A stretch of DNA of 64,000 bases from positions 14,518 to 78,517 of the forward strand of contig PWEN01000033.1 in the NCBI GenBank assembly GCA_003553505.1, written 5' to 3'. This document shows positions 1 through 18,424 of the stretch, piece after piece. Both the position numbers and the translations under genes were made by a program. A model generated the notes under the pieces. That model was not told the DNA's origin and made no database searches. It saw only the letters and a list, made by a program, of their open reading frames with translations. This stretch comes from Candidatus Nealsonbacteria bacterium (lineage in GTDB: Bacteria; Patescibacteriota; Minisyncoccia; Minisyncoccales; PWPS01). How positions within the stretch are numbered: position 1 is the stretch's first letter; each line of letters starts with the position of its first letter.

Positions 1-972
1 ATAGAAGGATGGGCTTGCGATGAAAGAATAGCGCACTCTTCCATGATAGTAGAAGCTCCTTCTATAAACAGCTCGCGCGTGCTTGCAGTACGTCAAAAAG
101 TAAAGGAAAGCGATAAAAGATACGCCCTTACAGCGATCGGAGGAACACAAGTAGACACGCTCAGCTCTCTAGACGGAGCGCTTACAAGCTCAAACACAGA
201 GGCAGATACGGTAGAAACATGGTTTGAAGTAGGATACGAGGAATACGCCCTTACTGAAGAGTTCGCAAGAGAAACAAAGAGCGCCAGCGACCTAACAGAA
301 AGCTCGTATGCAGGAGACGAGCTGGTGCTTTTCTGGGACAGACAAACATCAGAAGAGGAATACAAAGAGGTGTATGGAGGAGAAACAATATACTACCGTT
401 TTGCCGCAAGTATAGACGGAAGCATTACAAGAGGTGAAACAGTAGAGTTTGAAGTTCCCGAGCCAGAGCCCGAGCCAGAGCCCGAAGACCCCATCATTCC
501 CGATCCCGAGCCAGAACCAGATGTTGATGACTACAATCAGTACGAAGACGCCTCCAATCGCCTCAAGCAGCAACTTTCCTGCATGAGAAGCGAGCTAGAT
601 AACGTACAAGAAGACGACAATAACCCCATAGGAAAAATATCTTACATATCTGATCACAGAATATACTACGGCACTTGCTCGTGGGTGCATGGAGATATTC
701 AGCCGGGAGGGTGTAGCTTCGACCACGGCACATCTTACGGACAAACAAGAATATCACCGCACTACGGAGGAAGAGGGTGCAATGAGTTGCAAAAATCTTT
801 TGCTGTCACATTCAGTGACATGGAAAACGCAGAAGAGATAATAAGGGCAGCAAAATCCTGCAATCCTTCAAGCTACATCTCTTACGTAACCCCAAGGTCT
901 TTTGGAGAAGACAAAACAACCCCACAGCTACAAGTGAGTATTGCTGGAAATTATAACTGCGGAACAAACTAA
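1..972 (+). CDS. hypothetical protein, 5'-partial; (Pro-Glu)n linker plus Cys-containing C-terminal domain
   Basis: The frame of listed ORF 43..972 stays open back to nt 1, so the gene probably starts upstream of the window. PEPEPEPEPEDPIIPDPEPEPD linker; six Cys in the last ~130 aa. Stop lies 5 nt before the next ATG (978). No family recognised. Confidence 0.55.
   Translation: MEGWACDERIAHSSMIVEAPSINSSRVLAVRQKVKESDKRYALTAIGGTQVDTLSSLDGALTSSNTEADTVETWFEVGYEEYALTEEFARETKSASDLTESSYAGDELVLFWDRQTSEEEYKEVYGGETIYYRFAASIDGSITRGETVEFEVPEPEPEPEPEDPIIPDPEPEPDVDDYNQYEDASNRLKQQLSCMRSELDNVQEDDNNPIGKISYISDHRIYYGTCSWVHGDIQPGGCSFDHGTSYGQTRISPHYGGRGCNELQKSFAVTFSDMENAEEIIRAAKSCNPSSYISYVTPRSFGEDKTTPQLQVSIAGNYNCGTN
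457..522 (+). repeat. coding low-complexity (CCN-GAR)n repeat encoding the PE linker
   Basis: cccgagccagagcccgagccagagcccgaagac...cccgagccagaaccagat read directly from the sequence. Confidence 0.8.
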
Positions 973-977
973 AAGAT

Positions 978-3900
978 ATGCTAAAAGAAAAAAAACGATC
1001 CACTTCCTTTTTACTACTAACTCTTGCACTTTTAATTGTTGCGGGAGGGGTGGGACTATTTCACCTTTTGAAAGATGAAGCAGAAGGAGAGTCTCGCGTT
1101 CACTACCCTACTCGCACAGAAGTCATTATTGAAGAAATAGAAGATCTGGTAGAAAACATAAAAAGAGGAGATGATGACGGAACAGCTTTTAGCGAAATAA
1201 TAGAGTCAATGGAGTCCGCAAACTGTGAAAACATGAACTCTATATGTGACACAGGAAATTGCGACCCCATGGAGGACGAGTTTCTTCCCGGAAGCTTTTG
1301 GGATGCAAAAGAAAAAGAGAAAGAGTTTATCGCTAAGCAAGAAGACATCAGAAAAAACAAGGAGCACTTCGCTTTTTTACAAAACATAATCAAAAAAGAG
1401 TTGGCACAAGAAGACGGAGGACTGCGAATGGAGCTTGAAAACATGAGAGAAGAAGGTCAAGAAGAGAAAGCTGACAGCATGGAAGAAGACTTGGAAGTTC
1501 TTCTTTTTATTATGGACCCCGAAGACGAAGAAACACAAGAAATAATAAGCGAGGAGTCTGTCACAAAAGGAGAACAAAGAATGGAGTCCTGGGGTATCGA
1601 TATGGGAATAATGGATATAATGGATAAATTTCTCTCCTTTGACTACTGGGGAGATGCCTGCATTTCTGCTTGTGAGACAGATTGGTGGTTTGAGTTTTGT
1701 GTAGGGCTACAAGTTGTACAAGAAAGCATAGATCTTATTTTCGAAATGGAGCTTGGTCTCGAAGACATGGAAATAGATCCCGTGGAAATAAGCAGTATTG
1801 ATCTCAATCTGCCCGGAGAAATAGACATTCCCGATCCAAAGCTATCTTTTGAGATCCCTATTCCCGATATAGGCGTAAGCTTTCCTCAAGCCACAATAGC
1901 AGAAGTGGGAGCAGGAGGTGCTTTAGATATGAGCATAAATCCCATAGAGCTTCCCTCCGTAAGAATACCTACTCCTATAAGAGAAAGAACTGAGCTTTGT
2001 CCTCAATATGAAAGCCCTGCTAGCGCGGGAAGCTTTGAAAGGCATGAAATGCAAGAAAGAATAGGCACAGTAGCTCTTGACTGGCACCTGCAGGTATACT
2101 CCTATCTTGCTCAAAGATGCATGGAGATTCCTTCCGCCGCCTTTACTAGAATGTACTGTCAAGACATTGAAGATGAAGGAGGAGTGGCAAGCGTTATAAG
2201 TGAGTGCGACACCAAGGATGCAGAAGACCTAGAAGAAGATTATGATTCAAGAAACATATGCTCTTTTGCCATCAGCGCAGACCATGTCTTCGATGCATGC
2301 AGAGACAATGAAGATGCAAAAGGATGTGATCGTGTACTGGACGCTCTTGCGGAAGGGAATGAAAAGTACGCTTGCACTGTTGCTCTTCAAGAAACATCTG
2401 TTGCTGGAGAAGGGTCTCCCACAGAAGGGACAATACTGCGTGAAATGACCATGGACGAAAGGTGCTTTGATCCTGACGAGCTGGTTCCAACAATCAACAA
2501 CACATGCGAATATATATGGAGCGAGTACAGTGAGACGTGGATGTTTACAGACATATTTCGTGAAATGGACAGAGTAGATCTGCTTTTTATTGACGATTAC
2601 GAGGAGTGGTACGACTTTTTTGAGTGGCTAGAAAATTATCCTCTCAACATCGGTCCCAGCTACTCTCAACTAGAGTGGGAAAAGGTGTTTTTTGATGTCT
2701 CCACAGGAACAATAACAAGCTACAAGAACAACTTCAGTACATGGAACAGCAACATAGAGTGGGTCGAAGTAAGAACAGAAGAAGAGTGCGAGACCGATGA
2801 GTATGGAAATGAACATTGTGAAGAGTTCTCGGTAGGATATTACGATCCATGGCACCCAGACCAGTACTCCAACTGGCGTGAAGCGCTAGAAGGCGAAGAG
2901 GGAGCTGTTCCGTTCGAAGCAAAACTTGAAAGCATATGGCACGAATTTCCAGATAGTGGAAGTGTTCAGACATGGGGAAGCTCTCTTCCCTCGGGGTCCG
3001 GGAGGCGCTACGAGTCAGGATACTCTTATAGGCAGTTCGACAAAGATATTCCCGGCTCAATAATAAGCGCGATAAACGAGTTTCTGAGCGAAGACATAGA
3101 AGACATGTTTGAGTTTGTTTTTGAAGAAGAGATCGGGATTTATGCAGACGACAAAACGTCCTGGGCTCTTTTCTTTGATTTTGTTGATGAAGATTTCGAT
3201 GAAGAAGATGAAGGATTTAATTTGGAGAAAATATGGGAAGAGCTTTTCGAGCTCATGGATGAAAGGCCTGACATCCGCGGCGGAATAGTAAGAGAAGATA
3301 AGTTCGGACAGTATGAGCTTCACAGGTTTCTTAAAGAAGAAGAGGTAAAAGAGGAAGACTTAACAGAAGAGTTTGAAGATTATACAGACATATATCCTCT
3401 TCCTCAAGAAATACTAGTACCCCCCAGAATATGTCAGGAAGTCGGAGTGATCGAGGAAGTGGAAGAAGAAATAGATATAGAGATAGATGAAAAATGGCAA
3501 GAACATCAGATGTACAACTACTATCTCATAGACTTCTTTGGAAACTACTTTATTCCTTTTGTAAACACCGCAGCGTTAAGCATGGACCTGGCAGACAAAT
3601 TTAGTGATCTTTACGATATCATTGACGACAAATATGAACGCCTATCTTTTGTAAACTCTTACGGAATATATAAGTTCCTGTCAGAGAATGAACTTATAAA
3701 TGAAAGCTTTGACAACCTTCCTGACTCCGCCGTAGAGTATGAAGACTATGATATTCCTGAAAGCGACTACGACATACCGGACAATTTTTATGAGTGTCGT
3801 GCAGAAGGAGGGTCCGAAGATGATTGCGAAGAATACGCCATACCGCACCAAGAATACATGGATGAATACTACAACGCAACAGGTGGTGTAGGCCATGAAG

Positions 3901-6900
3901 CTGACCAGGACGAGAGGATGTTTCACTTCATAGAAAATTACGAAAACTGGGAAGGGTATGCAGAATATCTTAATCTTTGGGATGATTATGTCGAAATACT
4001 AAAAGACATGGGTACTAGCGAGTTTGGTTTGTTCGATAGATACTCCAGCCATGCAGGCAATTGGAGTGAGTACGAAAAGTTTTTTGAATATTTAACAACA
4101 AGCAGTCCCGGAATCTTTGAAGAATACTCTGAATACGCAAACAACTGGAGTGACTACGAAGATTTTTTCCTCGAAGAGAACGAGGAGGGGGATGAAGAAA
4201 AAGGAGAGCTTTGGGATGCCTATGAAGATTTTATCGATGAAGATAAGGAGTATCCCGACAATCTTATCGAGTTCATAGTTACAGCAGAACAGTGGGAAAG
4301 CTTCCTGGTGTTCGTAGAAGAAGAGAACTTGATGGACGAAAACTACGACTTTCTCATAGATGAAAACAGATTAAGTGCATCTGAAGTGCAAGACATCGAA
4401 GATGATGCAGAAGAAAACCTACTCTCTATTATAGAGGATAGAGGGTACTTTCCTCTTTTTGAAAACTTTCTTGCAGAAAACAGCCACCTACTAAAAGATG
4501 TTCCCGAGTTTCTTATAGAAGAACAGTTAACGCCACAAGAGATGCAAGACGAAAACATAGATTCGGGAGATATGTTTAATCAGTTCGCCTATCTCATAAT
4601 AGGAGAAGATCCTCTCTACGAGTACTTAGAGTTCCTTTCCCGCCACGACATCTCTTCCTTGTCCAGGCTAAGCGGCTATGAAGAAGATGCGGAAGAGTGG
4701 CACATTGGGCCATTTGGAGAGCCATATCAAGAATCTCTTTTTGAGATATGGCAAGAAGAGGAACCGAGCGAGCCACCCATGGACATTCCACCCTACAAAA
4801 ATGAGATACCTTTTCTTCCTACTCCTGTTGATGTTTGCGACATAGTAGAAGATGAATATCCTCCAGGAGAACCAACTTGCCAAGAGGTGGTAGCTGTCCA
4901 GGAAGAATATGTAGAAATGATGATGGAGTATCTTAGAGTATACTGGCAAGAACAAATTGTGTTTGATGATAGATTAAATCAATTTGGTTTTTATGAGATA
5001 TGGGAAAAATTCTTAGAGTTTCTTAGCATAAACAAGCTTTGGGACGAATTTCTTGTCCAAGCAGAAGACGACTGGTATATAAGAAATTCTGGGCTAAACA
5101 GCTCTCTTCGATTTCTTGATGACCAGAGAGAGTTCGAAAATTTCGTAAACTACATGAAGAACCCTGATGCAGAGATATATCCTCGCACATATAGCATGAC
5201 AAGAGAAGACCTTCTTTGGCGCAAAGCCGGAATAGGAGGAGGATTTTATGGGTCCATGCACGGTTACTGGCATGCTTGGCACGGAGATTACTGGGACAGA
5301 ATATGGGTACAAGAAATACTAGACAACCCTCGTGCTCCCCGGCAACTTGAAACATTCTGGGAAGAAGATGAGCTCTGGTTTCGAATGTGGGAAGACTATG
5401 AAGCCGTACAGCCGTCTCCTATACACGATCCAAGCCTTCAACTAGAAGAAGATGCTGATATCGGAAATGTGCACCTTTTCGAGGCGTTTCATAAGACCGT
5501 AATAGACTACGGCATAAAAACAGATGAAGTATTTAATCTCGAGCTGGACGATGGCAAAAGCGAAAGTGTGATGGACATGACAAAAAAAGATTATCGCGCA
5601 CCAACTTACAAAACACACCTCATGAGAATGGAGGAAGGATACGAAGCACTAAGAGACAATCTTTCTTGGTGGGAATTTGGCCTAGATCCAAAATTGCGCA
5701 TAGCAGCAAAAGAAAGGTTTACAATAGATATGATGGACAAGCTAGTTCCGGCACGCAGCGAAGAAAAAGCAATAGCAAGAGCATGTACTGACCTCTATCT
5801 AAACAGAGGAGAAACCCCTCCCGCCTCTTGTGAAAACAGCCCCTTAAGCGCTTTAAGAAGCAAGTGTAAAGCGGTTCTTCACGAAGAAGAGGAAAGAGAT
5901 CCCGCTCTTCGCGTAAGAATGCCTCAGCCCTGCGCTATCCTTCCTCTTTTTGAAAACTATCTCGACGTTCTCGTAGACGAGTTTGATCCGAGTATAGGAG
6001 GTGGCATGGTCTCAAGAGGAGGAGGAGAGCTTACGGGATATCCTTCAGAAGGAAGCTTTACCGGCTGTGGCTCTGTCTCCGGAAGCGTTCCTGGAGCCCC
6101 AGAAATTCCGGAGATACCCGTAATTCCTCTTTCAGATTACAGTGTTGAAATACCAGACATTGAAACGCCTAATTTTGGATTATCAGGAATTCTGGAAGTA
6201 ACCCTCCCTGATGTAATCATAGAAGACCTTACTTTCCCGGACATAGAACTTTGCGATTTAAGTGACTGTCAGGACTTCTTAGACATCTTTCCTTCCATTA
6301 TAGAGTTGATACCTTCCTTGGAGAACATTTACATCCCCACCCCCGCGATAGTGCCCAATCCGCTAACTCTTGATAGCGCAACTGCGCAAGTGAGTGGACA
6401 CGGAGCCATAACAGTTCCTTTACCTGATGTTCACATAGGAGAAGTAAATCTTCCCTCTGTTCTCTTGGACATTCCACAGCTCCCGGAGATAACACCTATA
6501 TCTATATCTTCTCCCGAGTATGATCTTCCCAGCCTTGAAATACCAGAGCCATATGTAGAGTTTAACTGGGGAGGGTTCGATGTAGATGTTGGTTCTGCAA
6601 TTGTAGGAGCAATATTAAACTATTTTGGTTTTAGTGGCGGAAGTCTTTGCGCTAGCGCTGGCGGAGTAAACTTTCTTCCTTTAAGCATAGGGTTTGAAGA
6701 TTATCATGTTCAGTGGCCAGACTTTCCAAAGATACCCGAAATTCCTCTTTGTCGTAACGCGCGTCAGTTCTGCAGAGACGCTGCCAACAGCCTGCAAGAT
6801 GTCATCGATGAACTCGAAGAGATAATGAGAGAAGTAGAGGAAGAGATACAAGAGGCATTATCAATGCCCGCTGATGCAACAGCAAAGCTAGAAGACCTAA

Positions 6901-7328
6901 TAAACGAAGAAGTGCAAGACTTGGAGGATAGCGTGAACAATTACATTCAAAGCACGCACATAGAAGGAGAGCTTATAGGAGAAACGATAAGATTGGACTC
7001 TTACACTATACCAACAGAAGACATAGAAATAGACGTTTATCTTTCCGATTTAATAGAAGATATGCCAAGCAGCGTAGAGGTTTTGGACGAAGAAGACAGG
7101 ACGGTAGAGCTCACAAACCCCATTGAGATTGAAATGCCCACCATTCCACTTGACGACCTAAGCACTACCTGGGAATATATTGTCGAGCTTCCTGCACTTC
7201 AAGGAATAGATGGCGGTGCTGAATTTGATTGGGGAGAATGCGAGATAGGACCTGTAGAGTATGATGACGTCTATGACTGGGAGCCGTTCGAGCTAGAAGG
7301 AATAGAGATAGAAGTAGAAACTTTCTAG
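978..7328 (+). CDS. giant (2116 aa) hyper-acidic membrane-anchored protein, no recognised domain
   Basis: Uninterrupted 6.35-kb ORF. N-terminal Lys-rich stretch then hydrophobic helix (STSFLLLTLALLIVAGGVGLFHLL). Composition visibly dominated by Glu/Asp with many Trp/Tyr/Phe. Short (I/L)P(D/E) motif clusters near both ends. Gly-rich hydrophobic segment VGSAIVGAILNYFGFSGGSLCASAGGV near the C-terminus. Intrinsic terminator follows. Confidence 0.85.
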   Translation: MLKEKKRSTSFLLLTLALLIVAGGVGLFHLLKDEAEGESRVHYPTRTEVIIEEIEDLVENIKRGDDDGTAFSEIIESMESANCENMNSICDTGNCDPMEDEFLPGSFWDAKEKEKEFIAKQEDIRKNKEHFAFLQNIIKKELAQEDGGLRMELENMREEGQEEKADSMEEDLEVLLFIMDPEDEETQEIISEESVTKGEQRMESWGIDMGIMDIMDKFLSFDYWGDACISACETDWWFEFCVGLQVVQESIDLIFEMELGLEDMEIDPVEISSIDLNLPGEIDIPDPKLSFEIPIPDIGVSFPQATIAEVGAGGALDMSINPIELPSVRIPTPIRERTELCPQYESPASAGSFERHEMQERIGTVALDWHLQVYSYLAQRCMEIPSAAFTRMYCQDIEDEGGVASVISECDTKDAEDLEEDYDSRNICSFAISADHVFDACRDNEDAKGCDRVLDALAEGNEKYACTVALQETSVAGEGSPTEGTILREMTMDERCFDPDELVPTINNTCEYIWSEYSETWMFTDIFREMDRVDLLFIDDYEEWYDFFEWLENYPLNIGPSYSQLEWEKVFFDVSTGTITSYKNNFSTWNSNIEWVEVRTEEECETDEYGNEHCEEFSVGYYDPWHPDQYSNWREALEGEEGAVPFEAKLESIWHEFPDSGSVQTWGSSLPSGSGRRYESGYSYRQFDKDIPGSIISAINEFLSEDIEDMFEFVFEEEIGIYADDKTSWALFFDFVDEDFDEEDEGFNLEKIWEELFELMDERPDIRGGIVREDKFGQYELHRFLKEEEVKEEDLTEEFEDYTDIYPLPQEILVPPRICQEVGVIEEVEEEIDIEIDEKWQEHQMYNYYLIDFFGNYFIPFVNTAALSMDLADKFSDLYDIIDDKYERLSFVNSYGIYKFLSENELINESFDNLPDSAVEYEDYDIPESDYDIPDNFYECRAEGGSEDDCEEYAIPHQEYMDEYYNATGGVGHEADQDERMFHFIENYENWEGYAEYLNLWDDYVEILKDMGTSEFGLFDRYSSHAGNWSEYEKFFEYLTTSSPGIFEEYSEYANNWSDYEDFFLEENEEGDEEKGELWDAYEDFIDEDKEYPDNLIEFIVTAEQWESFLVFVEEENLMDENYDFLIDENRLSASEVQDIEDDAEENLLSIIEDRGYFPLFENFLAENSHLLKDVPEFLIEEQLTPQEMQDENIDSGDMFNQFAYLIIGEDPLYEYLEFLSRHDISSLSRLSGYEEDAEEWHIGPFGEPYQESLFEIWQEEEPSEPPMDIPPYKNEIPFLPTPVDVCDIVEDEYPPGEPTCQEVVAVQEEYVEMMMEYLRVYWQEQIVFDDRLNQFGFYEIWEKFLEFLSINKLWDEFLVQAEDDWYIRNSGLNSSLRFLDDQREFENFVNYMKNPDAEIYPRTYSMTREDLLWRKAGIGGGFYGSMHGYWHAWHGDYWDRIWVQEILDNPRAPRQLETFWEEDELWFRMWEDYEAVQPSPIHDPSLQLEEDADIGNVHLFEAFHKTVIDYGIKTDEVFNLELDDGKSESVMDMTKKDYRAPTYKTHLMRMEEGYEALRDNLSWWEFGLDPKLRIAAKERFTIDMMDKLVPARSEEKAIARACTDLYLNRGETPPASCENSPLSALRSKCKAVLHEEEERDPALRVRMPQPCAILPLFENYLDVLVDEFDPSIGGGMVSRGGGELTGYPSEGSFTGCGSVSGSVPGAPEIPEIPVIPLSDYSVEIPDIETPNFGLSGILEVTLPDVIIEDLTFPDIELCDLSDCQDFLDIFPSIIELIPSLENIYIPTPAIVPNPLTLDSATAQVSGHGAITVPLPDVHIGEVNLPSVLLDIPQLPEITPISISSPEYDLPSLEIPEPYVEFNWGGFDVDVGSAIVGAILNYFGFSGGSLCASAGGVNFLPLSIGFEDYHVQWPDFPKIPEIPLCRNARQFCRDAANSLQDVIDELEEIMREVEEEIQEALSMPADATAKLEDLINEEVQDLEDSVNNYIQSTHIEGELIGETIRLDSYTIPTEDIEIDVYLSDLIEDMPSSVEVLDEEDRTVELTNPIEIEMPTIPLDDLSTTWEYIVELPALQGIDGGAEFDWGECEIGPVEYDDVYDWEPFELEGIEIEVETF

Positions 7329-7343
7329 TTGATAAACACAAGT

Positions 7344-7370
7344 AGGCGCTTCTTTTAGAAGCGCCTTTTG
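7344..7370 (+). terminator. rho-independent terminator after the giant gene
   Basis: aggcgcttct-ttt-agaagcgcct perfect 10-bp stem followed by ttttg. Confidence 0.8.
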
Positions 7371-7385: not shown

Positions 7386-8216
7386 ATGAAACTAAACAGG
7401 AAAAAAGCGCTGCAAATCCTTTTGAGTAGACACGCTACAAAACCTTTGAAGTCTCTCGGGCAAAACTTTCTTCTCGACGAAAGTGTACTACACGAGATAT
7501 GCTCTGCTGCAAGACTAAGAAAAAAAGATACCGTTATAGAGATAGGCCCCGGAGCAGGCATACTCACTCTTTGTCTCGCAAAAAAGGCAAAGAGGGTTAT
7601 CGCTATAGAAAAAGACCCTAAAATGATCGCCGCCCTAAAAGAAACAACAAAAAAGAACAAAAACATAAAGATGCTCAACGAAGATGCTCTTTATTCAAAA
7701 ATAAGAACAAAAAATCGCAAACTGATTGCAAACTTGCCTTACTATGTCGCCACACAAATAATAAAAAAGTTTCTCACAAAAAACCTTCCTCCTTCCGTAA
7801 TGGTCGTAATGGTTCAAAAAGAAGTAGCGGAAAGAATGATGGCAAAGCCCCCAAAAATGAATATGCTCTCATCTTTTGTTCAATCACTTTCAAGAGTAGA
7901 AAAAATAAAAATAGTAAAAAAAGGGTCTTTTTGGCCCCCTCCCAAGGTAGATTCTACAGTAATAAGAATATCTCCTTTTAAAAAAAGAGAAACTAAAAAT
8001 TTTTACAAAACACTGTTTTTTTTGCTAAAAACGGGATTTTCTCATCCCCGCAAGCAGTTGTCAGCAAACTTTTCCCGTACGGGAGAGCTAAAAGAACAGA
8101 TTTTTCTCGCTGCAAAAAAATCAGAAATAGACACAAAAAGAAGAGCGGAGAGCTTGTCTGTAGAAGAGTGGAGCAAGATAACAAAAGCACTTCTTTATTT
8201 GCAGGGAAATAAATAA
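7386..8216 (+). CDS. rsmA: 16S rRNA (adenine1518/1519-N6)-dimethyltransferase RsmA/KsgA
   Basis: LGQNFLLDESV... and SAM-binding VIEIGPGAGILT motifs typical of KsgA; 276 aa. Confidence 0.9.
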   Translation: MKLNRKKALQILLSRHATKPLKSLGQNFLLDESVLHEICSAARLRKKDTVIEIGPGAGILTLCLAKKAKRVIAIEKDPKMIAALKETTKKNKNIKMLNEDALYSKIRTKNRKLIANLPYYVATQIIKKFLTKNLPPSVMVVMVQKEVAERMMAKPPKMNMLSSFVQSLSRVEKIKIVKKGSFWPPPKVDSTVIRISPFKKRETKNFYKTLFFLLKTGFSHPRKQLSANFSRTGELKEQIFLAAKKSEIDTKRRAESLSVEEWSKITKALLYLQGNK

Positions 8217-8217: not shown

Positions 8218-9537
8218 ATGATAATCTTTTCAAAAGTACTTGATTTGCAAAAAATGAAAAAAATCTCAACCAAAAAAATACTTTTTTTGCTTCTTGTTTT
8301 CTCTGTTTTTTTTGTTTTTGCAACAGAAATACACGCTGATGACGAAAGAGAACCGAGGCCTCTCGAGATTGAAGATTATCCTTTCGTTGACCCGGCCCCG
8401 GAAGAAACCGATCATGGAGTAGGAGAATATATCGCTTATATCTTCAATGCTGCCGTATTTCTGGTGGGGGGACTGTTGTTTGCATCTCTTATATATCACG
8501 GCGTGCTTTACATGCTCTCCTCGGGTGATCCGGGAAAGGCGGGCGCCGCAATAGGAGGAGTAAAGTCCGCTTTTGTAGGAGCAGTTATACTCGTTTTCTC
8601 TTACCTTATACTCCAAACAATAAACCCGGAGTTGCTTGATGTAGACCTTGAAGACCTAGACCCTATACAGCCAGAGCCCCTCCCTGCAGGACCTTATGTT
8701 TGTAACTTTCCTCTACCAAATGTAAATTCCATAGTTAGTGGGTACAGGGGCGGAGAAGAATCTAGGGCAGAGGCCATTCTAAGTCTTCACGAAAAGGTGA
8801 GAGAGGAGTCTTTAGATAATCCCGAAGCCAACTGTGAAATCGTAACCAGCACAAGAGAAACAATACTTGAAGGAGACGGGCTGGAGAACACATACTTTGT
8901 CATCCCTTCTATAAAAGAAGAAGGGTCAGTGCTAGAAATAGAACACGGGATAATATTTTTTGGAGACAAAAACGGACTGGAGAACGCCATGTCGCGAAGC
9001 GGATCAAGGTGTCAGATACAACTCGGAGGACCACAAGAAGACGAATATTTTCCCGATGGCATGGAGGTAGGGCCTCATAAAAACTTTAATCTATTGAATT
9101 GGAGAAACAGAGCTTACTCTCTGTCTCCTATAAAAATGTATGTTGATGCCGATGTTACTGCAGAAGTAACTTTTTACGAAGGACACGAATATAATCAACC
9201 TGTTGCTAAAAATGCAGATTTCGAGGGAGATGAGATGGAAGAGTGGACAAAGCAAATAACAAATGGCGAAGAAATAACGGTATTAGATCGTGGAGATTTC
9301 CAAGCAGAAGACTTTCATTGTCAGGACGGCTCTTGTGGAGTAAGGTCTATGCAAGTTGAGAACGCATTTGTTGTTTTTTACGACGACAGAGATTGTTACA
9401 TATTCACCTCAAATAAAAAATATCTTCAAGAGACACTTCCGTCATCAAGAGAAGGCTGGTTTGGAGCCACAGACAGAGGCTTTGACAGAAATACGGACTT
9501 TGATAATGTGCTGATAATAAAAGGAGAAATAAGATAA
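8218..9537 (+). CDS. TrbC/VirB2-like pilin domain fused to a ~300-aa C-terminal soluble domain
   Basis: Signal-like N-terminus (alternative start 8254, MKKISTKKILFLLLVFSVFFVFA). Two hydrophobic helices flank the SSGDPGKAGAAIGGVK loop, the same architecture as the three small pilins at 38.7-39.8 kb. A long Cys-containing C-terminal extension follows. Confidence 0.6.
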   Translation: MIIFSKVLDLQKMKKISTKKILFLLLVFSVFFVFATEIHADDEREPRPLEIEDYPFVDPAPEETDHGVGEYIAYIFNAAVFLVGGLLFASLIYHGVLYMLSSGDPGKAGAAIGGVKSAFVGAVILVFSYLILQTINPELLDVDLEDLDPIQPEPLPAGPYVCNFPLPNVNSIVSGYRGGEESRAEAILSLHEKVREESLDNPEANCEIVTSTRETILEGDGLENTYFVIPSIKEEGSVLEIEHGIIFFGDKNGLENAMSRSGSRCQIQLGGPQEDEYFPDGMEVGPHKNFNLLNWRNRAYSLSPIKMYVDADVTAEVTFYEGHEYNQPVAKNADFEGDEMEEWTKQITNGEEITVLDRGDFQAEDFHCQDGSCGVRSMQVENAFVVFYDDRDCYIFTSNKKYLQETLPSSREGWFGATDRGFDRNTDFDNVLIIKGEIR

Positions 9538-11673
9538 ATGCATATGCGAAAACTATCAAAAAGATTTTATGTAGGCATTACTTCTTTCTTCTTTTTACTT
9601 TTGCCTTTGTTTTCTGCTCATGCTGTTGTTGCTGGCGCGCTTGAAACTGCTCTTTCTTGGTTTTTTATAAAAATCGTAAGCATCTTTTACTGGTTTGCAA
9701 GACTGATCACTCTTTTCTTCAACGACATGCTGCAGTTCGTATTGAGTGAAGATTTTATTCAGTGGCCATACACCAGACCGGGAGAGTCTCCTGACGGAAA
9801 TCCAATAATCGAAGCAGGCCTAAGTGTGACGCTTCCCCTCGTAAACGTAATAATTATATTTGCTTTAATTGTTATCGCTGGAGGAATAATTCTTGGACTT
9901 GAAAAGTACGGCACAAAAAAGATGCTTTTTAGTCTTGTTCTTGTTGCTCTGCTCGTAAACTTCTCTCCTCTTCTTGTAGGACTGGTAGTAGACGCCGCAA
10001 ACATAGCCATGTACTTCTTTGTGCAAGAAGCACAAGACTCATTAAAACACGTATACTCGACAATACAAGGAGGGGGCGAAGTTGTTACAGAACAGGAAGG
10101 CGAAAATAAGCTGGATCAAAACACCTACCAAGCATTGGCATTTATTGTAATGCAAACCTTTGTAACTTTCATAATGGGCTTTATTTTCTTTCTTTACATG
10201 CTCCTTTTCATATTCCGATATATTGCCATATGGATGCTAACAATACTCTCTCCTCTTGCCTTTGCATGTCTTGCTCATCCTTTGTTAAATGAGTGGTGGA
10301 AAAAGTGGTGGAGTCAAACCATACAGTGGTCTATTGTAGGAGTAACAGGAGCATTTTTCATATTCCTGTCTTCAAAGATAAACGAACAAGCAGCTGAACT
10401 ATATGACACTCAAGATATGGGCGGAACAGGCGAAGGATTTTCCCGTTTTGCATCTGAAATTGCAACTGTAACCTTTCCCATGTTTGTCGTTGCTGCTTTC
10501 TTTGTTATGGGATACATTCTTGCTATAACAACATCCGCCATGGGAGCAGACAAAGTAGTAAACTTTGCACAAGAAAGAAGAAAGTGGGCTCAAAAACAAG
10601 CGATGAGAGCACCAAGGTACGCAAAAGATTGGTCAAAAGACAAAGCAAGCAAAGGAGCGCGCAAAGGAGCAGCATACGTTTCCGATAAAACAGGGTTGAC
10701 CAAAAAAGCGGGAGAGGTGGCCACCGCACAAAGATGGGGAGAAGGACAAGCAGGGTTTGGAGGATGGGCAAAAAGAAGAGCTTCCGTTGTGCAGGGAGCT
10801 TGGCGAGCGCCAGCATCAAAGATCGCCGGAGCAGCAGAAAAGCAGCCCGGAAAAATGGTAAAAGATGCGGAAAAGAAGTACGAGCATATAGAAAATAAAA
10901 CAGAAATGGCAAGTAAACTATCAGGAGCAAGAAATGAAGAAGACAGACTCGCAATAATAAAGCAAGCAAAAGAGAAAGGAATGCTTAAAGACGTAATGGA
11001 AAAATCAGGAGACTCTGCAAGAAAGAACTTTGAAGGAATATATGGCTTGGCGGAAAAAACAGGAGACGATAAGACTATAAAGAAAGCTCTTCCTATGGAG
11101 TATATAGCAAAAAAGTCAAGACAAAACATTTCTCAAATAGGAGAGAAGAAGCACAATGAAAACATAAAAGAAGTTTCTAGAGAGCTTGGTAAAGATCCTG
11201 AGGCTCTAAAAAGTGCAAGCGATTCAATTGCAAAAGCAATAGAAAAAGAAGGACCGGAAAGAGATGAGGCAGAAAAAATAATTCAAAATCTTATGCAGGA
11301 AAAAGCGTCTGTATTGCAAACGATGGTAGATAGCTCAGACAAGGCACGAGAAGCTCTTTATAAAACAGCTGAAAGGCATGCAGAAACAGCTGAAAAAGAG
11401 CTCCAAGAATTTTTTGGAAAAAGCTTTAATCACAAAAAACTAAATCGGGAACAAAAACTGTATGCTCTTATGAAGCAAAAGAGAGCCCCTGCATTAAGAG
11501 CCATGGAAAGAGGAATGGCAGACATCGCAATACCCTACGAACACATCCCAGAAAGCTCTCAGGAAACAGAAGGCTCTTCACAGAGCCCCTCGCAGAGTCC
11601 TTCGCAAAGTTCGTCGCAAGAAAGCAATATTATCACAGACCACCCTGATATTAATCGCCATAAAAAGTTTTAA
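9538..11673 (+). CDS. polytopic membrane protein, VirB6/TrbL-like, with long Lys/Glu-rich tail
   Basis: Signal peptide plus at least 7 hydrophobic segments in the first ~340 aa. Then a ~370-aa charged tail ending in SSQSPSQSPSQSSSQ. ATG abuts the stop of the upstream pilin-fusion gene. Assignment rests on topology and context only. Confidence 0.5.
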   Translation: MHMRKLSKRFYVGITSFFFLLLPLFSAHAVVAGALETALSWFFIKIVSIFYWFARLITLFFNDMLQFVLSEDFIQWPYTRPGESPDGNPIIEAGLSVTLPLVNVIIIFALIVIAGGIILGLEKYGTKKMLFSLVLVALLVNFSPLLVGLVVDAANIAMYFFVQEAQDSLKHVYSTIQGGGEVVTEQEGENKLDQNTYQALAFIVMQTFVTFIMGFIFFLYMLLFIFRYIAIWMLTILSPLAFACLAHPLLNEWWKKWWSQTIQWSIVGVTGAFFIFLSSKINEQAAELYDTQDMGGTGEGFSRFASEIATVTFPMFVVAAFFVMGYILAITTSAMGADKVVNFAQERRKWAQKQAMRAPRYAKDWSKDKASKGARKGAAYVSDKTGLTKKAGEVATAQRWGEGQAGFGGWAKRRASVVQGAWRAPASKIAGAAEKQPGKMVKDAEKKYEHIENKTEMASKLSGARNEEDRLAIIKQAKEKGMLKDVMEKSGDSARKNFEGIYGLAEKTGDDKTIKKALPMEYIAKKSRQNISQIGEKKHNENIKEVSRELGKDPEALKSASDSIAKAIEKEGPERDEAEKIIQNLMQEKASVLQTMVDSSDKAREALYKTAERHAETAEKELQEFFGKSFNHKKLNREQKLYALMKQKRAPALRAMERGMADIAIPYEHIPESSQETEGSSQSPSQSPSQSSSQESNIITDHPDINRHKKF

Positions 11674-11684: not shown

Positions 11685-12125
11685 ATGAAGCAATTAACTA
11701 AAGAAGAGCGATTCAAGATATATCAAAGCCTTCCTCAGGAGGCAAAGGATCTTTTTTGGTCAGATGAGGTGATAGACATAATGGACCTGCTCAAATCACG
11801 CTATAAAATAGACAGCAATGACAAGCAGCTTCCGAGAATTACTGGTCTTGTTATTCTCGGAGCAATACCTCTTTCAAAGCTACCTCAAACTCTTTCTTCA
11901 AGAACGGGAGTAGACCAAAAAAAGGCAGAAAAGTTAGCAGATGACATTAAAAGGCACATTCTTTTCCCTATAAAGGATTTTCTTGAGGAAGCATATGATG
12001 AGGATTTTTCTATATGGGAATTTAGAGCAAAAGATGAAGAGATAGAGAGAATAAAAAAAGGAAAAGACACGACACAAAAAGAAGAAACAACAAAAAAAGA
12101 AGACCCTTACAGAGAAAATATATAA
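11685..12125 (+). CDS. hypothetical protein (146 aa, soluble, Lys/Glu-rich C-terminus)
   Basis: ORF with ATG 11 nt after the upstream stop; followed by a bidirectional terminator; no family recognised. Confidence 0.6.
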   Translation: MKQLTKEERFKIYQSLPQEAKDLFWSDEVIDIMDLLKSRYKIDSNDKQLPRITGLVILGAIPLSKLPQTLSSRTGVDQKKAEKLADDIKRHILFPIKDFLEEAYDEDFSIWEFRAKDEEIERIKKGKDTTQKEETTKKEDPYRENI

Positions 12126-12155: not shown

Positions 12156-13451
12156 CTACCAGCCCATTTTTTTATCTATTCTGTCCCGCAACTCCTTACT
12201 CATCTCCCTTGACTGAGAGGGAGTCTTTATAGGACTTTCTTTTTTTCCGCCTCCACCTTCTGCTGCCTTGAGCGCCATAGCGCACTTGGCAAACATGCTT
12301 GGAAGGTCGCCATCTCCTTCTCCGAAGTCTCCCACTATAAATCCATTGTTGTCACGCGCGTACTCCTGTTTTCTTATATTATCCACCAGTTTCCACGCCT
12401 CATGCTTTGAAATGCCATACTCAATGCTGTATTTCTCAGCAAGATCTTCCATGTAGCCAAGACTTTGACGTTTTGCTTCTCTGTCCTTCTCCGCCTTTGT
12501 AACTCTTGCATTCCCGAGAAGCTCTTCCTTTTTGTCCTGAGTGAAAGCTGTCACAATCTCGGGATCCTCTATCTCCATTTCCTCGATCCATAGACCTCTT
12601 TCAGAGATCTTTAATCCATACTTCGAGATCTTTTCCTTGTACTCTTTTCTTGAAGAAATGCCTTCAACGGGAACGTCTGTTTTCATGGTATTTTTGTACT
12701 CCTCCCAGTACTGGGAGTCGGGATTTATTCCCTCCCACAGCTCTTTGCTCTGCCTGCCAACACTAAACAGAACATCAAACCCCACACGCGCTGCAAAACT
12801 ACGCATGAAGTCATCTATCATGGTTAGCAAGCCATCGATACTTGAAGAGGGACTAATGAAGAGATATTTCTCAACATTTATTATTCTCACCTCCACATAG
12901 TACTTGAGAAACATCCCTATTCTCCCAAACTGGGGATGTGTAAACACGTGCGTAACGGTGGAATAATAGATCTCTGGGCGCAGCGGTATGGAGTCCATTT
13001 TTTGAACTTTTTCATGTTCAATTCCGCTTTGTCCACGCCCCTCTTTCCAGTTTATGGAATATCTGTAGGGACGAACCATGGGCCAGAAAAGAGGAAAGAC
13101 CAATCCTCCCAAGAGCCTTTCTCCTCTTCTGTATACGACAACGTCCTGCTCGGCCTCTACTGCTTTCTGCTTATCCCAAACCTCGAAATTTTTATCGAGG
13201 AAGTGGTTCTTCCATGAAATATTTACGTCATGGAGCGCGCCGAATCTCGTGAAGGCAACTGCAGTGCCTTCTCTTACTTGTTTTTTTGTTTTAATAATAA
13301 TAAGCAAGAGAAGAGATCCTGCGACAACAGCCGCTCCGATGTGTGTAAAGTGGAGCAAGTACACTCCCAAACACAACACCACCAACAACAAGAGCTTTAT
13401 AAGAAAAACAGTCCCGTCTATAAACCTTCTTCTTCTTTCCTTGATTGCCAT
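12156..13451 (-). CDS. membrane protein with SPFH/band-7-like domain (tentative)
   Basis: Start moved to ATG 13451, which has GGAGG 6 nt upstream; the listed ORF extends to 13622. Two N-terminal TM helices. VREGTAVAFTRFGALHDV resembles the start of SPFH domains. Charged C-terminal tail. Confidence 0.5.
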   Translation of the reverse strand: MAIKERRRRFIDGTVFLIKLLLLVVLCLGVYLLHFTHIGAAVVAGSLLLLIIIKTKKQVREGTAVAFTRFGALHDVNISWKNHFLDKNFEVWDKQKAVEAEQDVVVYRRGERLLGGLVFPLFWPMVRPYRYSINWKEGRGQSGIEHEKVQKMDSIPLRPEIYYSTVTHVFTHPQFGRIGMFLKYYVEVRIINVEKYLFISPSSSIDGLLTMIDDFMRSFAARVGFDVLFSVGRQSKELWEGINPDSQYWEEYKNTMKTDVPVEGISSRKEYKEKISKYGLKISERGLWIEEMEIEDPEIVTAFTQDKKEELLGNARVTKAEKDREAKRQSLGYMEDLAEKYSIEYGISKHEAWKLVDNIRKQEYARDNNGFIVGDFGEGDGDLPSMFAKCAMALKAAEGGGGKKESPIKTPSQSREMSKELRDRIDKKMGW

Positions 13452-13560
13452 AAAAGCCTCCTTTCTTTCTTTACTTAGGCTGGTAAAATGTTTAAAGAGC
13501 AGTTTATTTATATCATTAATTTTCGATTTTGTAAAGTGTAGAATTTTGATAAAAAATTGT

Positions 13561-13588
13561 TTGATAACTTTTCTTGTTGTGCTAGAAT
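13561..13588 (+). promoter_or_regulatory. sigma70-type promoter TTGATA-16-TGcTAGAAT
   Basis: ttgata (13561-66), 16-nt spacer, tgctagaat (13580-88). The ATG at 13599 lies 10 nt after the -10, implying a near-leaderless mRNA. Confidence 0.55.
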
Positions 13589-13598
13589 GCAAAAAGGT

Positions 13599-14000
13599 AT
13601 GAAGTTTAAAGTGCCAAGACACATAGAGTACGAGTCCAAAATTGTTGCAGGAGTAACCTTCAAGCAGATGGCATATCTTGGAGTTGGAGGAATTTCTATA
13701 TTTTTCCTTTATTTCATCCTTCCTTTTATATTGTTTGTACTGGTTTCTATTCCCATAGCGGGAGCCTCGGCGGCTTTAGCCTTTGTTACCGTAGGAACGC
13801 AAACTCTTCCGGAATACCTAAAAAACTTTTTTTACTTTTCTACAACAACAAAAACATATCTTTGGAAGAAGAAAGACCTACCCCCTGTTCTTAAAACAAC
13901 AAAGAAAGAAGAGAAGGAAGAAAAAGAAGAAAAGGCCGACAAAAGACCAAAAGGAAAAAGCAAGCTTGATGATATGTCAACAAAAATAGAAACATCTTAA
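13599..14000 (+). CDS. PrgI/VirB3-like small T4SS membrane protein
   Basis: MKFKVPRHIEYESKIVAGVTFKQMAYLGVGG followed by two TM helices, then a Lys/Glu tail. Sits immediately upstream of the VirB4 ATPase genes. Start chosen downstream of the promoter. Confidence 0.55.
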   Translation: MKFKVPRHIEYESKIVAGVTFKQMAYLGVGGISIFFLYFILPFILFVLVSIPIAGASAALAFVTVGTQTLPEYLKNFFYFSTTTKTYLWKKKDLPPVLKTTKKEEKEEKEEKADKRPKGKSKLDDMSTKIETS

Positions 14001-14001: not shown

Positions 14002-14634
14002 ATGGCAATAAAAAGCACACAAGATTTTTTGGAAGTAGATCAAATAAGGAACGGGGTTCTTATTCTTAAAAATAAAGGAATAAGAGGAATTTTAATGGTC
14101 TCCTCTATAAATCTTGCTCTAAAATCAGAAGAAGAACAGCGCTCTGTAATTTATGGATTTGAAGAGTTTTTAAACTCCCTTGATTTTGCTTGCCAGATTA
14201 TTGTGCAATCAAGAAAAACAAACATAACAGGATATATAGATAAAATAAAGGAGCTGGAAAAAAATCAAGAAAACGAGATGCTTAAACATCAAACCGCGGG
14301 ATATAGAGAATTTCTGGAACAGTTCATAAAAAGAGAATCTATACTAACAAAAAAGTTTTTTGTTGTTGTTCCTTACTCTATAGGAGAAGCAAAAAAAGGA
14401 CAAGGTGGAGAGAGCAAAAAGCCAGCAACCAATCTTACAGAAGAAAGATTTGAAAGAGCAAAAGTACAGCTTACACAAAGAATGGAATTTGTTGCCTTGG
14501 GGTTACGCAGGTGCGGACTACAATCCTCTCCTCTTACAACATCGGAGATTATGGAGCTTTTTTGGGGTCTTCACCATCCAAGAGAGGCAGAGAGGGGATA
14601 TTATCCGGAATTTCCTGAAGAGTTTATAAATTAA
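14002..14634 (+). CDS. hypothetical protein resembling the N-terminal region of Gram-positive-type VirB4 proteins
   Basis: STQDFLEVDQIRNGVLILKNKG...SSINLALKSEEEQRSVIYGFEEFLNSL pattern, recalled from VirB4/TcpF-type N-termini. 1-nt gap to prgI-like and 3-nt gap to virB4-like. Confidence 0.35.
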   Translation: MAIKSTQDFLEVDQIRNGVLILKNKGIRGILMVSSINLALKSEEEQRSVIYGFEEFLNSLDFACQIIVQSRKTNITGYIDKIKELEKNQENEMLKHQTAGYREFLEQFIKRESILTKKFFVVVPYSIGEAKKGQGGESKKPATNLTEERFERAKVQLTQRMEFVALGLRRCGLQSSPLTTSEIMELFWGLHHPREAERGYYPEFPEEFIN

Positions 14635-16821: not shown

Positions 16822-17261
16822 GATTTTCTTTTAACAACAACTCTTTTTTTCTGTCCCTCGTTTACGCTCTCTGTTTCAATATCATCCTTCTCTGATAGAG
16901 CCATATGAACAACCCTTCTCTCATACGCTGACATGGGAGGGAACTTTTTTTCTATTCCCGTAAGAGAAACCTCTTCTGCCGCCTCTAGTGCCAACTCTTT
17001 TAAATAGTCCATTTTTCTCTTTTTGTAGTTATTGATATCCAAATTAACAAAGACTATATCTTTTGTTTTTTTTCTAACTATCTTCTTTAAAAGTGTTTCC
17101 GTATCAGCAAGCGTTTGTCCTTTCTCTCCTATAAAAGATTGTGGTTCTTTTATTTTTATATTTATATTTAAACAGTTCTCCTCTTCTAAGGAAAAATCCA
17201 CCCTTATATCCTCGTCTATCATTTTAAATATCTCTTTTACTGTTTCTTTTATTTCTTCCAT
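16818..17261 (-). CDS. jag: Jag/KhpB-like RNA-binding protein (KH + R3H)
   Basis: Directly downstream of yidC. C-terminal R3H-like SAYERRVVHMALSE. Start set to ATG 17261 (MEEIKETVKE), 1 nt after the yidC stop. Confidence 0.75.
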   Translation of the reverse strand: MEEIKETVKEIFKMIDEDIRVDFSLEEENCLNINIKIKEPQSFIGEKGQTLADTETLLKKIVRKKTKDIVFVNLDINNYKKRKMDYLKELALEAAEEVSLTGIEKKFPPMSAYERRVVHMALSEKDDIETESVNEGQKKRVVVKRKS

Positions 17262-17262
17262 T

Positions 17263-18284: not shown

Positions 18285-18289
18285 AAAAA

Positions 18290-18424
18290 CTACACGGATA
18301 TTTTCTTTCTTCCTCTTTTTAATCTTCTTTTAATAACACCTTCTCCCGCTTTTGTTCTCTTTCTTATCAAGAATCCGTGGGTTTTTTTTCTTTTTCTTTT
18401 TTTAGGATTATAAGTAAAAGACAT
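18290..18424 (-). CDS. rpmH: 50S ribosomal protein L34 (absent from the ORF track because it is under 60 aa)
   Basis: My translation of the minus strand: [44 protein letters not shown]. This is the classic L34 sequence in the classic position upstream of rnpA. Confidence 0.9.

Follow-up and report, generated by a model that had tools for sequence, protein, structure and literature searches.

What is the giant open reading frame that opens this window (the whole 64,000-nucleotide stretch of Candidatus Nealsonbacteria DNA analysed here), and what does it have to do with the genes of a type IV secretion system (T4SS) beside it? The initial annotation had taken it for a surface-displayed polyanionic giant protein of no recognisable domain, and had proposed a part in cell-cell or host contact, as an adhesin, a cation or basic-protein sponge, or a pilus-associated fibre. 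We find that the giant belongs, in expanded form, to a previously undescribed, Parcubacteria-restricted protein family with an N-terminal anchor and a Cys-rich extracellular body, and that the family gene has a fixed place in a chromosomal monoderm-type T4SS cluster, between the two pilin-fusion genes and just upstream of a VirB6-like gene. The cluster contains the following features:

1-972, forward strand: C-terminal 323 aa of a 1,005-aa VirB2-like pilin-fusion protein (complete gene on contig L001, 6978-9995)
978-7328, forward strand: giant ORF, 2,116 aa (expanded form within an unnamed, T4SS-linked family of Parcubacteria)
7344-7366, forward strand: intrinsic-terminator-like hairpin and T-run
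7386-8216, forward strand: rsmA/ksgA (TIGR00755, 241 bits)
8218-9537, forward strand: 439-aa VirB2-like pilin-domain protein, the downstream partner (T4SS_pilin, 36.4 bits, cutoff 26.6)
9538-11673, forward strand: VirB6/TrbL_3-like polytopic membrane protein (precomputed PF19590, also in orthologs; phmmer orthology)
11685-12125, forward strand: small 146-aa cluster protein, found in some related loci
12156-13622, reverse strand: cluster protein of ~480 aa, found in some related loci
13599-14000, forward strand: PrgI/VirB3-like protein (PF12666, 35.4 bits)
14002-14634, forward strand: TrsD/TraC-like protein resembling the VirB4 N-terminal domain (NF041427, NF045975, PF26593)
14638-16440, forward strand: VirB4 ATPase of the monoderm CD1110/MPF-FATA type (NF045971, 363 bits, cutoff 325; P-loop_TraG)

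The giant ORF starts with ATG, 5 nt after the TAA stop codon (970-972) of the upstream ORF, and is followed by a strong terminator whose 10-bp stem has six G-C pairs and precedes TTTTGTGTT, both as initially annotated. The upstream ORF itself had been read as a Cys/PE-linker protein and turns out to be the C-terminal part of a longer one, in which an N-terminal VirB2-like T4SS_pilin hairpin (24.2 bits, under the 26.6-bit cutoff) is joined to a large acidic, Cys-containing extracellular part, and which is homologous to the pilin-domain protein downstream of the giant. For the product of 9538-11673, TrbL_3 (PF19590) was not listed by hmmscan at E<=0.01. The proposed linkage of the giant to a T4SS-like cluster holds, and its placing merely upstream of that cluster does not: the gene lies inside, because T4SS-type genes also precede the window start, where a LysM+M23 hydrolase and a VirD4-like ATPase are encoded.

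Both the gene pair and its linkage to secretion genes are conserved in relatives, and the initial proposal withstands the check set with it, under which missing linkage would have counted against it. A synteny check found the order pilin-fusion, family gene, pilin-domain protein, TrbL_3-like gene in every locus with flanks (~34, without variation), and related loci with long enough flanks carry the PrgI, TrsD-like and VirB4 genes too; LysM-M23, DksA/TraR and dnaA genes also occur near family loci. Read across the window and contig L001, the giant's locus has the same order as its relatives with rsmA inserted, a gene which in relatives stands upstream of the pilin-fusion gene and here has moved to the far side of the giant, ahead of the next pilin-domain gene; KsgA is reported to be common near virB4 in Patescibacteria (PMC12102498). 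The family cores, at 22-38% identity, diverge as fast as the pilin-fusions and VirB6; identity in VirB4 is 62-72%.

In gene set and layout this cluster matches the chromosomal MPF-FATA-type T4SS of Patescibacteria (Quinonero-Coronel et al. 2025, PMC12102498; Wang et al. 2023, PMC10633639), with its CD1110-type VirB4, TrsD-like, PrgI/VirB3, VirB6/TrbL and VirB2-like pilin proteins and LysM-M23 hydrolase, with ksgA, rnpA, yidC and dnaA nearby and with no relaxase seen. Patescibacteria T4SSs are described as MPF-FATA-like and usually without a relaxase (PMC12102498), and the T4SS as essential for epibiotic growth in Saccharibacteria (PMC10633639). The giant's family, on the other hand, is absent among the components named in these papers, and the triplet of pilin-fusion, family and pilin-domain protein is not described in the sections consulted. 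The survey (PMC12102498) detected no adhesin, and left genes without profile matches unannotated, in grey, in its synteny figure.

That no domain is recognisable in the giant was correct, in that Pfam and NCBIfam gave zero matches, and yet the protein is no orphan, being made of a family core of ~950 aa and an insertion of ~1,100 aa. By BLASTP, its residues 44-510 align with residues 41-489 of the family member P0002 (29% identity) and residues 1596-2075 with 443-908 (38% identity, E=2e-85), leaving ~1,085 residues unmatched between the two blocks. The family HMM scores 1,148 bits against the giant, with aa 1-456 on profile positions 1-411 and aa 1592-2115 on 394-895, and the HMM coordinates point to three insertion sites. 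The family is defined by the A3/A6 profiles built in this analysis, and a profile search recovered 105 relatives among 1.84e9 cluster representatives. Their modal length is ~870-1,000 aa, three members reach ~2,000 aa, and the giant is the longest complete member found in this analysis. The core has no Pfam, NCBIfam or PDB match. Across 28 members about 18 cysteines hardly vary, and 20 Cys columns are invariant in a five-sequence alignment that includes the giant. With the family the giant shares collinear N- and C-terminal cores, an N-terminal transmembrane (TM) anchor, the Cys set, the gene position and the signature LP[DN]xI[IF]EDLxxP[DE]I[ED]LC (here aa 1743-1765). An AF2 model of the P0002 core from a nine-sequence alignment is poor (pLDDT 54, pTM 0.30), and Foldseek of this model against the PDB gave zero matches. 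The parts of the giant, all on the forward strand, are:

1008-1070: N-terminal TM anchor, aa 11-31, after the basic tail MLKEKKRSTS (hydropathy)
1071-2129: N-terminal core, aa ~32-384, conserved (BLASTP to P0002, HMM, alignment)
2130-2462: first inserted segment, aa ~385-495, particular to the giant subclade (alignment; BLASTP against L012)
2463-2519: conserved family island CFDPDELVPTINNTCEYIW, aa 496-514, between both inserted segments (BLASTP, alignment)
2520-5762: main insertion, aa 515-1595, aromatic-rich and hyperacidic (homology to the P0053 and L012 insertions; periodicity)
5763-7325: C-terminal core, aa 1596-2116, conserved (BLASTP to P0002; HMM)
6570-6695: Gly-rich hydrophobic segment, aa 1865-1906, conserved (hydropathy)

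Hydropathy (Kyte-Doolittle, 19-residue window, KD19; cutoff 1.6) bears out the single N-terminal TM helix noted earlier: the sole window above 1.6 in the giant lies at aa ~7-31 and reaches 2.42, and across the family the median for this anchor is 2.36, with 88% of 66 members above 1.6. The N-terminal core holds helical or coiled-coil segments, conserved cysteines and the motif block LPGEIDIPD...IPIPDIG; in the C-terminal core are the signature LPDVIIEDLTFPDIELCDLSDCQ, beta-type motifs punctuated by prolines, the stretch WPDFPKIPEIPLC, a long hairpin of helices and a TIPL motif. The [ILV]P[DE] clusters are where they had been reported, at aa 284-295 and 1710-1919, and so is the Gly-rich segment, ~240 aa before the C-terminus. 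This segment is a borderline, not a clear, TM candidate (KD19 1.38 in the giant; family median 1.52, with 43% of members above 1.6); were it membrane-spanning, the topology model would have to be revised, with the final ~210 aa placed in the cytoplasm.

The first inserted segment is acidic, contains Cys and is missing from the ~950-aa family members; at its site P0053 has an extra ComEA-like HhH domain (HHH_3, 59 bits). The main insertion (aa 457-1591 as defined by the HMM) has 16.2% F+W+Y and 25.6% D+E, the latter the highest within the family. Aromatic enrichment had been described over ~1,800 residues and is limited to aa ~500-1560 (15-22% per 100-aa block). The recurring W-x2-[YF]-x2-F motifs are real, with six copies observed against 0.25 expected, a number reached in none of 2,000 shuffles; 28 aa separate two of them, HAGNWSEYEKFFEYL at aa 1025 and YANNWSDYEDFFLEE at aa 1053, and the insertion also contains a local duplication specific to the giant, NWSEYEKFFEYL / NWSDYEDFF. 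Homologous insertions occur in P0053 (phmmer 2e-45) and in an ORF of locus L012 (phmmer 1e-35; BLASTP 24% over 822 columns), with 28-31% identity; the giant's insertion aligns with these two distant homologs over ~900 columns, and F+W+Y is 16-17% in the insertions of the giant and P0053. The C-core tree pairs the giant with P0053 as sisters, and the cores of both sharers group with the giant. The ~1,100-aa insertion is a module inherited within a small 'giant' subclade.

In the three-way alignment of these insertions, 89% of Cys, 45% of aromatic and 29% of acidic residues are identical, Cys and aromatics being the classes kept best, and the hydrophobic periodicity, of the amphipathic-helix kind, peaks at 100-105 degrees (z ~6). 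An AF2 single-sequence model of the insertion was uninformative (pLDDT 32); periodicity and conservation are what suggest a folded helical module. We considered a disordered acidic low-complexity region, and reject it on the ~900-column alignment, the retained aromatics and Cys, and the helical periodicity. Inserts in other family members comprise an NHL/Reg_prop propeller, a Kre9_KNH Ig-like domain, HHH_3 and coiled-coil, and Trp-rich inserts that are not homologous occupy the central site in P0024 (10% W) and P0044 (8.7% W). A clean indel of 323 aa separates P0002 from P0006 between flanks that are 86-92% identical, and P0008 and P0011 have shorter inserts at the same site. The central region of the family is a hypervariable site, which carries such inserts in other lineages and in the giant has taken up the ~1,100-aa module plus a segment of ~110 aa.

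The best explanation for the giant, and probably the right one, is an accessory scaffold of the T4SS, exposed at the surface and bearing a host-binding module that can be swapped. Display at the surface on a membrane anchor, as initially proposed, is consistent with the robust N-terminal helix and the nearly invariant cysteines, and a role in cell-cell or host contact is still the best reading; a pilus-associated fibre is possible. The N- and C-terminal cores would dock the protein to the secretion or pilus apparatus at the cell surface, and the central region would be an exposed, exchangeable module touching the host cell envelope, a contact that might provide adhesion, something like mating-pair stabilisation, or host specificity. 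Many short helices may, in the giant's lineage, build the fold or a binding surface with their aromatic faces, and the extreme negative charge would mostly mirror the acidic make-up of the secreted proteins of the lineage.

A purely structural role, as part of a channel or stalk, would fit the conserved operon position just as well. The protein might stand in for the VirB8/VirB10-type envelope-spanning scaffold, mostly undetectable in Patescibacteria, with the insertions as tolerated decorations of no binding role; its invariant place within the cluster, the family-wide conservation of the cores and a bitopic topology with an N-terminal TM helix, as in VirB8 and VirB10, all suit such a part. 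We nevertheless hold this reading to be unlikely, if a serious contender. Searches with Pfam and NCBIfam profiles found no VirB5/TrbJ, VirB8, VirB10/TrbI or VirB6/TrbL match in the giant or in the 63 other members scanned, the inserts can be recognised as domains of a binding type (NHL, Ig-like, HhH) and are not random filler, and the giant's own insertion has been kept over long distances with its aromatic and Cys positions maintained, which argues for selection on the insert itself.

It is quite improbable that the protein is a device acting on the host membrane, in which Trp/aromatic amphipathic helices, the Gly-rich segment and long helical hairpins would engage or perturb that membrane and open the T4SS conduit. 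Aromatic or Trp-rich inserts do recur non-homologously at the central site (P0024, P0044, the giant and P0053), the borderline internal hydrophobic segment is conserved, and in the low-confidence P0002 model (pLDDT 54) long helices are predicted to flank it. The proposal would rest wholly on composition and analogy, however; the inserts of other members are of the propeller or Ig-like kind, a protein with -0.19 net charges per residue is poorly suited to bind anionic bacterial membranes, and Foldseek found no structural match in the PDB.

A sponge or electrostatic shield, for which the negative charge itself would be selected to bind cations or basic proteins or to repel, is very unlikely. The giant is extreme in composition (24.0% D+E, 6.0% K+R, 12.1% F+W+Y; net charge -379, pI 4.05), and its insertion tops the family in D+E, but the polyanionic character once thought special to it is matched in the insertion-free orthologs P0002, P0003, P0006, P0008 and P0011 (pI ~4.05, 19-22% D+E) and in neighbouring secreted proteins. 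Sponging is unlikely as the selected function because acidity is common to both; pI is ~4.0-4.4 among the cluster's secreted or envelope proteins and 5-10 among cytoplasmic or housekeeping ORFs in the window. Within the insertion, acidic residues also belong to the less conserved classes, the homologous insertions are far less acidic (16% D+E and 8.6% K+R in P0053), and the rest of the family includes neutral and basic proteins, with pI values reaching 9.2. The ordinary pI of the cytoplasmic ORFs in the window likewise rejects the acidic proteome of a salt-in halophile. Hyperacidity looks like a trait of the lineage and its secretome.

An assembly artefact or decaying pseudogene fusion, suggested by the unusual length and by a whole-protein search that recovered the giant alone, is hardly credible for a 6.35 kb frame that is the only one open across the insertion (frame 1 has no stops, the others 75 and 85), with codon usage like the rest of the genome, an identical protein recorded on two contigs, both family cores intact and collinear, and homologous long forms with the same neighbours in two other lineages.

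Several known systems offer points of comparison for the scaffold with a swappable module. TraN of F-like plasmids, a diderm outer-membrane protein of ~600 aa, stabilises mating pairs, is Cys-rich and has a divergent centre that sets recipient specificity. The giant resembles it, as a functional analogy only, in being a Cys-rich envelope protein encoded with a transfer system and having conserved ends and a variable centre; it differs as a monoderm-type CPR protein with an N-terminal TM anchor, and neither it nor its family members match a TraN profile in Pfam; nothing indicates a shared origin. In the Cag T4SS of Helicobacter pylori the VirB10 homologue, CagY, is itself a giant, its middle region built of DNA repeats. 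Like CagY and the extended VirB6 proteins noted in Rickettsiales (PMC12857230, PMC7648143), the protein studied here is a conserved T4SS component enlarged by a huge hydrophilic region. Unlike CagY, it has no protein repeats and no DNA tandem repeats of note (only 2-5 short copies), and no TrbI/VirB10 or VirB6 profile match. PrgB (aggregation substance) and other adhesins of Gram-positive T4SS operons are, like the giant, large proteins of the cell surface whose genes accompany a monoderm T4SS, with a presumed part in cell-cell contact. PrgB binds eDNA (cited in PMC12102498), which the DNA-binding HhH domain of P0053 recalls. The giant differs in its N-terminal TM anchor, and an adhesin of the PrgB or antigen I/II type is rejected: its C-terminus (...EGIEIEVETF) lacks LPXTG, and Pfam and NCBIfam find no GbpC/AgI/II or other adhesin domain. 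Repeat adhesins (RTX, cadherin, Ig-like/BIg, fibrillar) are rejected as well, with no Pfam match and no significant BLASTP self-match.

The family is thus a concrete candidate for the determinant of host contact or host specificity in a widespread chromosomal T4SS of Patescibacteria, a poorly understood machine, and its profile, with about 100 members, can annotate 'grey' genes of these clusters. Its central region appears to swap modules even between orthologs that are ~90% identical, and the giant shows that more than 1,100 residues can be absorbed there. A bolder version, which we rate as improbable, would see in the family the element, so far missing, by which the T4SS of Parcubacteria engages its host, a disulfide-stabilised anchored scaffold whose central module would select and engage the host envelope through aromatic/Trp-rich amphipathic helices and the Gly-rich segment, opening or stabilising the feeding conduit of the epibiont. 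If that were true, the host range of these ultra-small bacteria would be driven in large part by module swapping at this one site.

The acidic 2,116-aa protein (hereafter the giant) is the largest, insertion-bearing member of an undescribed accessory family of Patescibacteria T4SS, and on the full 93.6-kb contig T4SS-type genes flank it on both sides.

T4SS gene cluster in gene order, with window coordinates and strand where assigned
DksA/TraR
(-), VirD4-like ATPase
(-), LysM+M23 hydrolase
1,005-aa protein with an N-terminal VirB2-like pilin domain (pilin-fusion), whose C-terminus is the ORF initially annotated as 'Cys/PE-linker'
978..7328 (+), giant ORF, 2,116 aa
7344-7366, 10-bp G+C-rich hairpin followed by a T-run, directly 3' of the giant ORF
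7386-8216 (+), rsmA/ksgA, between the giant and the 439-aa pilin-domain gene
439-aa pilin-domain protein
9538-11673 (+), TrbL_3/VirB6-like protein, 711 aa (PF19590 TrbL_3, precomputed annotation)
two conserved proteins, role not assigned
PrgI/VirB3
TrsD-like protein
VirB4, CD1110 type
jag(R3H)/yidC/rnpA, origin GC dip, dnaA

What the initial annotation observed of the ORF is confirmed. Its start is separated by 5 nt from the TAA that ends the preceding ORF, and the product contains 24.0% D+E, 6.0% K+R and 12.1% F+W+Y (net charge -379, pI 4.05), with a single strongly hydrophobic window at aa ~7-31. Every motif quoted at that stage is present, and W-x2-[YF]-x2-F occurs six times against 0.25 expected, a count equalled in none of 2,000 shuffles. 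Internal repeats were also searched for in the giant and rejected.

The annotation had also held that the protein was without recognisable kin, which no longer stands, since a family of ~950-aa proteins matches it at both ends. Pfam and NCBIfam scans of the giant gave no family match, and a word-index search of a 5.8-billion-protein set with the whole sequence returned the query alone, likely because acidic low-complexity words crowded the candidate list; the C-terminal 557 aa, which are less biased, retrieved ~960-aa proteins from Paceibacteria/Patescibacteria MAGs. By pairwise BLASTP against P0002, a family member that lacks the insertion, residues 44-510 of the giant align with 41-489 (29% identity) and residues 1596-2075 with 443-908 (38% identity, E=2e-85), so that the giant is collinear with its ~960-aa relatives at both ends, with ~1,085 residues between that have no counterpart. 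When 1.84 billion cluster representatives were searched with a family profile, only 105 proteins reached E<=1e-3. Full-length members are mostly ~870-1,000 aa, with a tail to ~1,550 aa and three members of ~2,000 aa: the giant, P0053 (>2,012 aa, at a contig end) and P0068 (1,986 aa).

The conserved core has its own signature. An N-terminal TM anchor is general (median Kyte-Doolittle 19-residue hydrophobicity 2.36, above 1.6 in 88% of 66 members), about 18 cysteines are nearly invariant, and the IP(D/E) clusters singled out in the initial annotation are the most conserved motifs of the family, proline-punctuated blocks such as LPDVIIEDLTFPDIELCDLSDCQ. The Gly-rich hydrophobic segment (aa 1865-1906 in the giant) is also common to the family as a borderline TM segment (median 1.52 on the same scale), and the topology of the giant past it is uncertain. 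Scans of 63 members with Pfam and NCBIfam placed no domain in the core, the family profiles matched neither collection, and two of them (A3 and A6) retrieved no PDB sequence at E under 0.05. In an AF2 model of P0002 built from 9 sequences (pLDDT 54, pTM 0.30), a long helical hairpin appears as a further, predicted hallmark of the family, and Foldseek found no match to this model in the PDB at E below 4; the insertion modelled alone reached pLDDT 32.

The place of the family in the T4SS cluster is fixed. In all flanked related loci examined (~34, from GTDB genomes and metagenomes, including those of the other two ~2,000-aa members), the order pilin-fusion, family member, pilin-domain protein, VirB6-like protein is invariant, which strengthens the T4SS linkage proposed from the window alone. 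The named MAGs with such loci belong to Paceibacterota, Nealsonbacteria and the Parcubacteria group. In relatives, rsmA lies upstream of the pilin-fusion gene in nearly all loci showing it (locus L006 is one exception), and its position downstream of the giant is a local rearrangement within an otherwise fixed gene order. Between loci the core diverges at the pace of the VirB6-like protein and the pilin-fusions (22-38% identity), against 55-72% for VirB4 and the TrsD-like protein. The TrbL_3 assignment (PF19590) of the 9538-11673 protein extends to its orthologs in the precomputed annotation, although hmmscan of the 711-aa protein at E<=0.01 gave no Pfam family; a scan of genome contigs with this protein as single query found no match.

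Other genes surround this locus. Upstream of the window start, positions 1-2672 of the fuller contig (L001) encode a 979-aa protein whose low-complexity tail is extremely rich in E and K and a 534-aa protein that has a TM segment at its centre, and homologs of both recur beside DksA/TraR in related loci. About 22 kb from the cluster, 38919-39314 and 39399-39755 (+) encode two short VirB2-like pilins that stand alone (131 and 118 aa; T4SS_pilin 39-40 bits, one with a TrbC match too), which are candidate major pilins, unlike the two long pilin-fusions flanking the giant. The window also holds a PilB-like T2SSE ATPase at 25243-26553 (-) and an [FeFe]-hydrogenase large subunit with ferredoxin-type domains at 45302-46981 (+). 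The cluster adjoins a likely replication origin at ~17200-20000, a proximity that PMC12102498 reports for many Patescibacteria. Here yidC(-) and rnpA(-) are followed by an intergenic region with G+C down to 27.7%, by dnaA (18602-19933) and by an ORF at 20096-21220.

The insertion itself has relatives. Residues 457-1591 of the giant are homologous to the insertion of P0053 (phmmer 2e-45) and to that of a partial 1,432-aa ORF in a GTDB MAG, at locus L012 (1e-35; BLASTP 24% identity over 822 columns). A three-way alignment spans ~900 columns at 28-31% identity to the giant. Conservation in it is highest for cysteines, of which 89% are identical, and for aromatics, with 45% identical and 62% in the same class; acidic residues are kept poorly (29%). 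The HAGNWSEYEKFFEYL / YANNWSDYEDFF pair is a local duplication confined to the giant, its relatives having a single motif. A hydrophobic periodicity of 100-105 degrees (z ~6) points to many amphipathic helices with aromatic faces in the insertion. A tree of the C-terminal core pairs the giant with P0053 as its sister (42.7% identity), beside a clade of ~960-1,280-aa orthologs, which makes the insertion a trait inherited within a small subclade; judged from its sequence, it is not junk. A metagenome scan with the three-sequence alignment yielded no copies beyond the three known carriers, and a weak search found no insertion in other protein contexts. A second giant in the subclade, P0053 (L013, 72-6110), runs off the end of its contig and so exceeds 2,012 aa; just ahead of its aromatic module lies a DNA-binding helix-hairpin-helix domain of ComEA-like type (HHH_3, 59 bits), a hint that some family members touch extracellular DNA.

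Insertions recur in the family at three sites (profile positions ~90-115, ~295-300 and ~362-450, in HMM coordinates), and modules turn over at the central one, where P0068 carries an NHL/Reg_prop propeller, P0034 Kre9_KNH Ig-like repeats, P0053 the HhH domain and other lineages, among other inserts, coiled coils. P0034 (1,553 aa) has Kre9_KNH repeats near its C-terminus as well, and its added C-terminal region holds a HELGH motif resembling a metalloprotease signature. Between P0002 (L002, 10001-12874) and P0006, flanks that are 86% and 92% identical surround an indel of 323 aa with clean borders (P0002 residue ~503-506), a point at which P0008 and P0011 have shorter inserts; this indicates recent gain or loss of modules. 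Extremely Trp-rich helical inserts (8.7-10% W, e.g. GWYQFWKDQWNREESWENFWKEWWSGIWKSF) occupy the central site in P0024 (aa 414-663) and P0044 (aa 412-834), with L015, 10001-14035, as a locus. The insertion of the giant has no detectable homology to these two, and the resemblance may reflect convergent use of aromatic amphipathic helices.

We consider it probable that the giant is an anchored, Cys-rich external protein, whose N-terminal helix would hold it in place with the body outside the cell, whose conserved cores would associate with the pilin-fusion and VirB6 apparatus, and whose exposed central module would contact the host envelope. The surface role first proposed gains strength along with the T4SS linkage. 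TraN of F-like plasmids is Cys-rich, with conserved ends and a variable centre determining recipient specificity, and on these three features it offers the closest working analogy, as opposed to a homologue. A purely structural function, the family standing in for VirB8/VirB10-like components at its fixed place in the cluster, is unlikely, and it is quite doubtful that the helices of the insertion form a host-membrane-active device.

The initial annotation had also entertained a polyanion sponge, which now appears very improbable; the charge does not look like the selected function. In the window, cytoplasmic proteins have ordinary pI and the secreted proteins of the cluster alone lie at ~4.0-4.4; insertion-free orthologs of the same clade are as acidic (pI ~4.05, D+E 19-22%), more distant members reach pI 9.2, and the homologous insertions of P0053 and L012 are less acidic (16-20% D+E). 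The charge is most plausibly a feature of this lineage's secreted proteins, possibly linked to habitat; a salt-in halophile reading was rejected given the ordinary pI of the cytoplasmic proteins. That the giant is an artefact is scarcely credible given that the two alternative frames are broken by 75 and 85 stops over the length of the insertion, that codon usage is native and that the identical protein is recorded on two contigs; no DNA repeats of note were found in the ORF.

The giant belongs to a known system. Passages of PMC12102498 describe the Patescibacteria T4SS as monoderm MPF-FATA-like, near oriC, often with KsgA nearby, with VirB2-like pilins and usually without relaxase, and the cluster studied here matches that description; the same passages state 'no adhesins detected' and leave unannotated genes grey in the synteny figure. 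According to PMC10633639 and PMC12857230, Saccharibacteria cannot grow as epibionts without their T4SS, the function of which is unknown. Within this known Patescibacteria T4SS, the family of the giant is an undescribed one, and its central module would be the exposed part that meets the host envelope.
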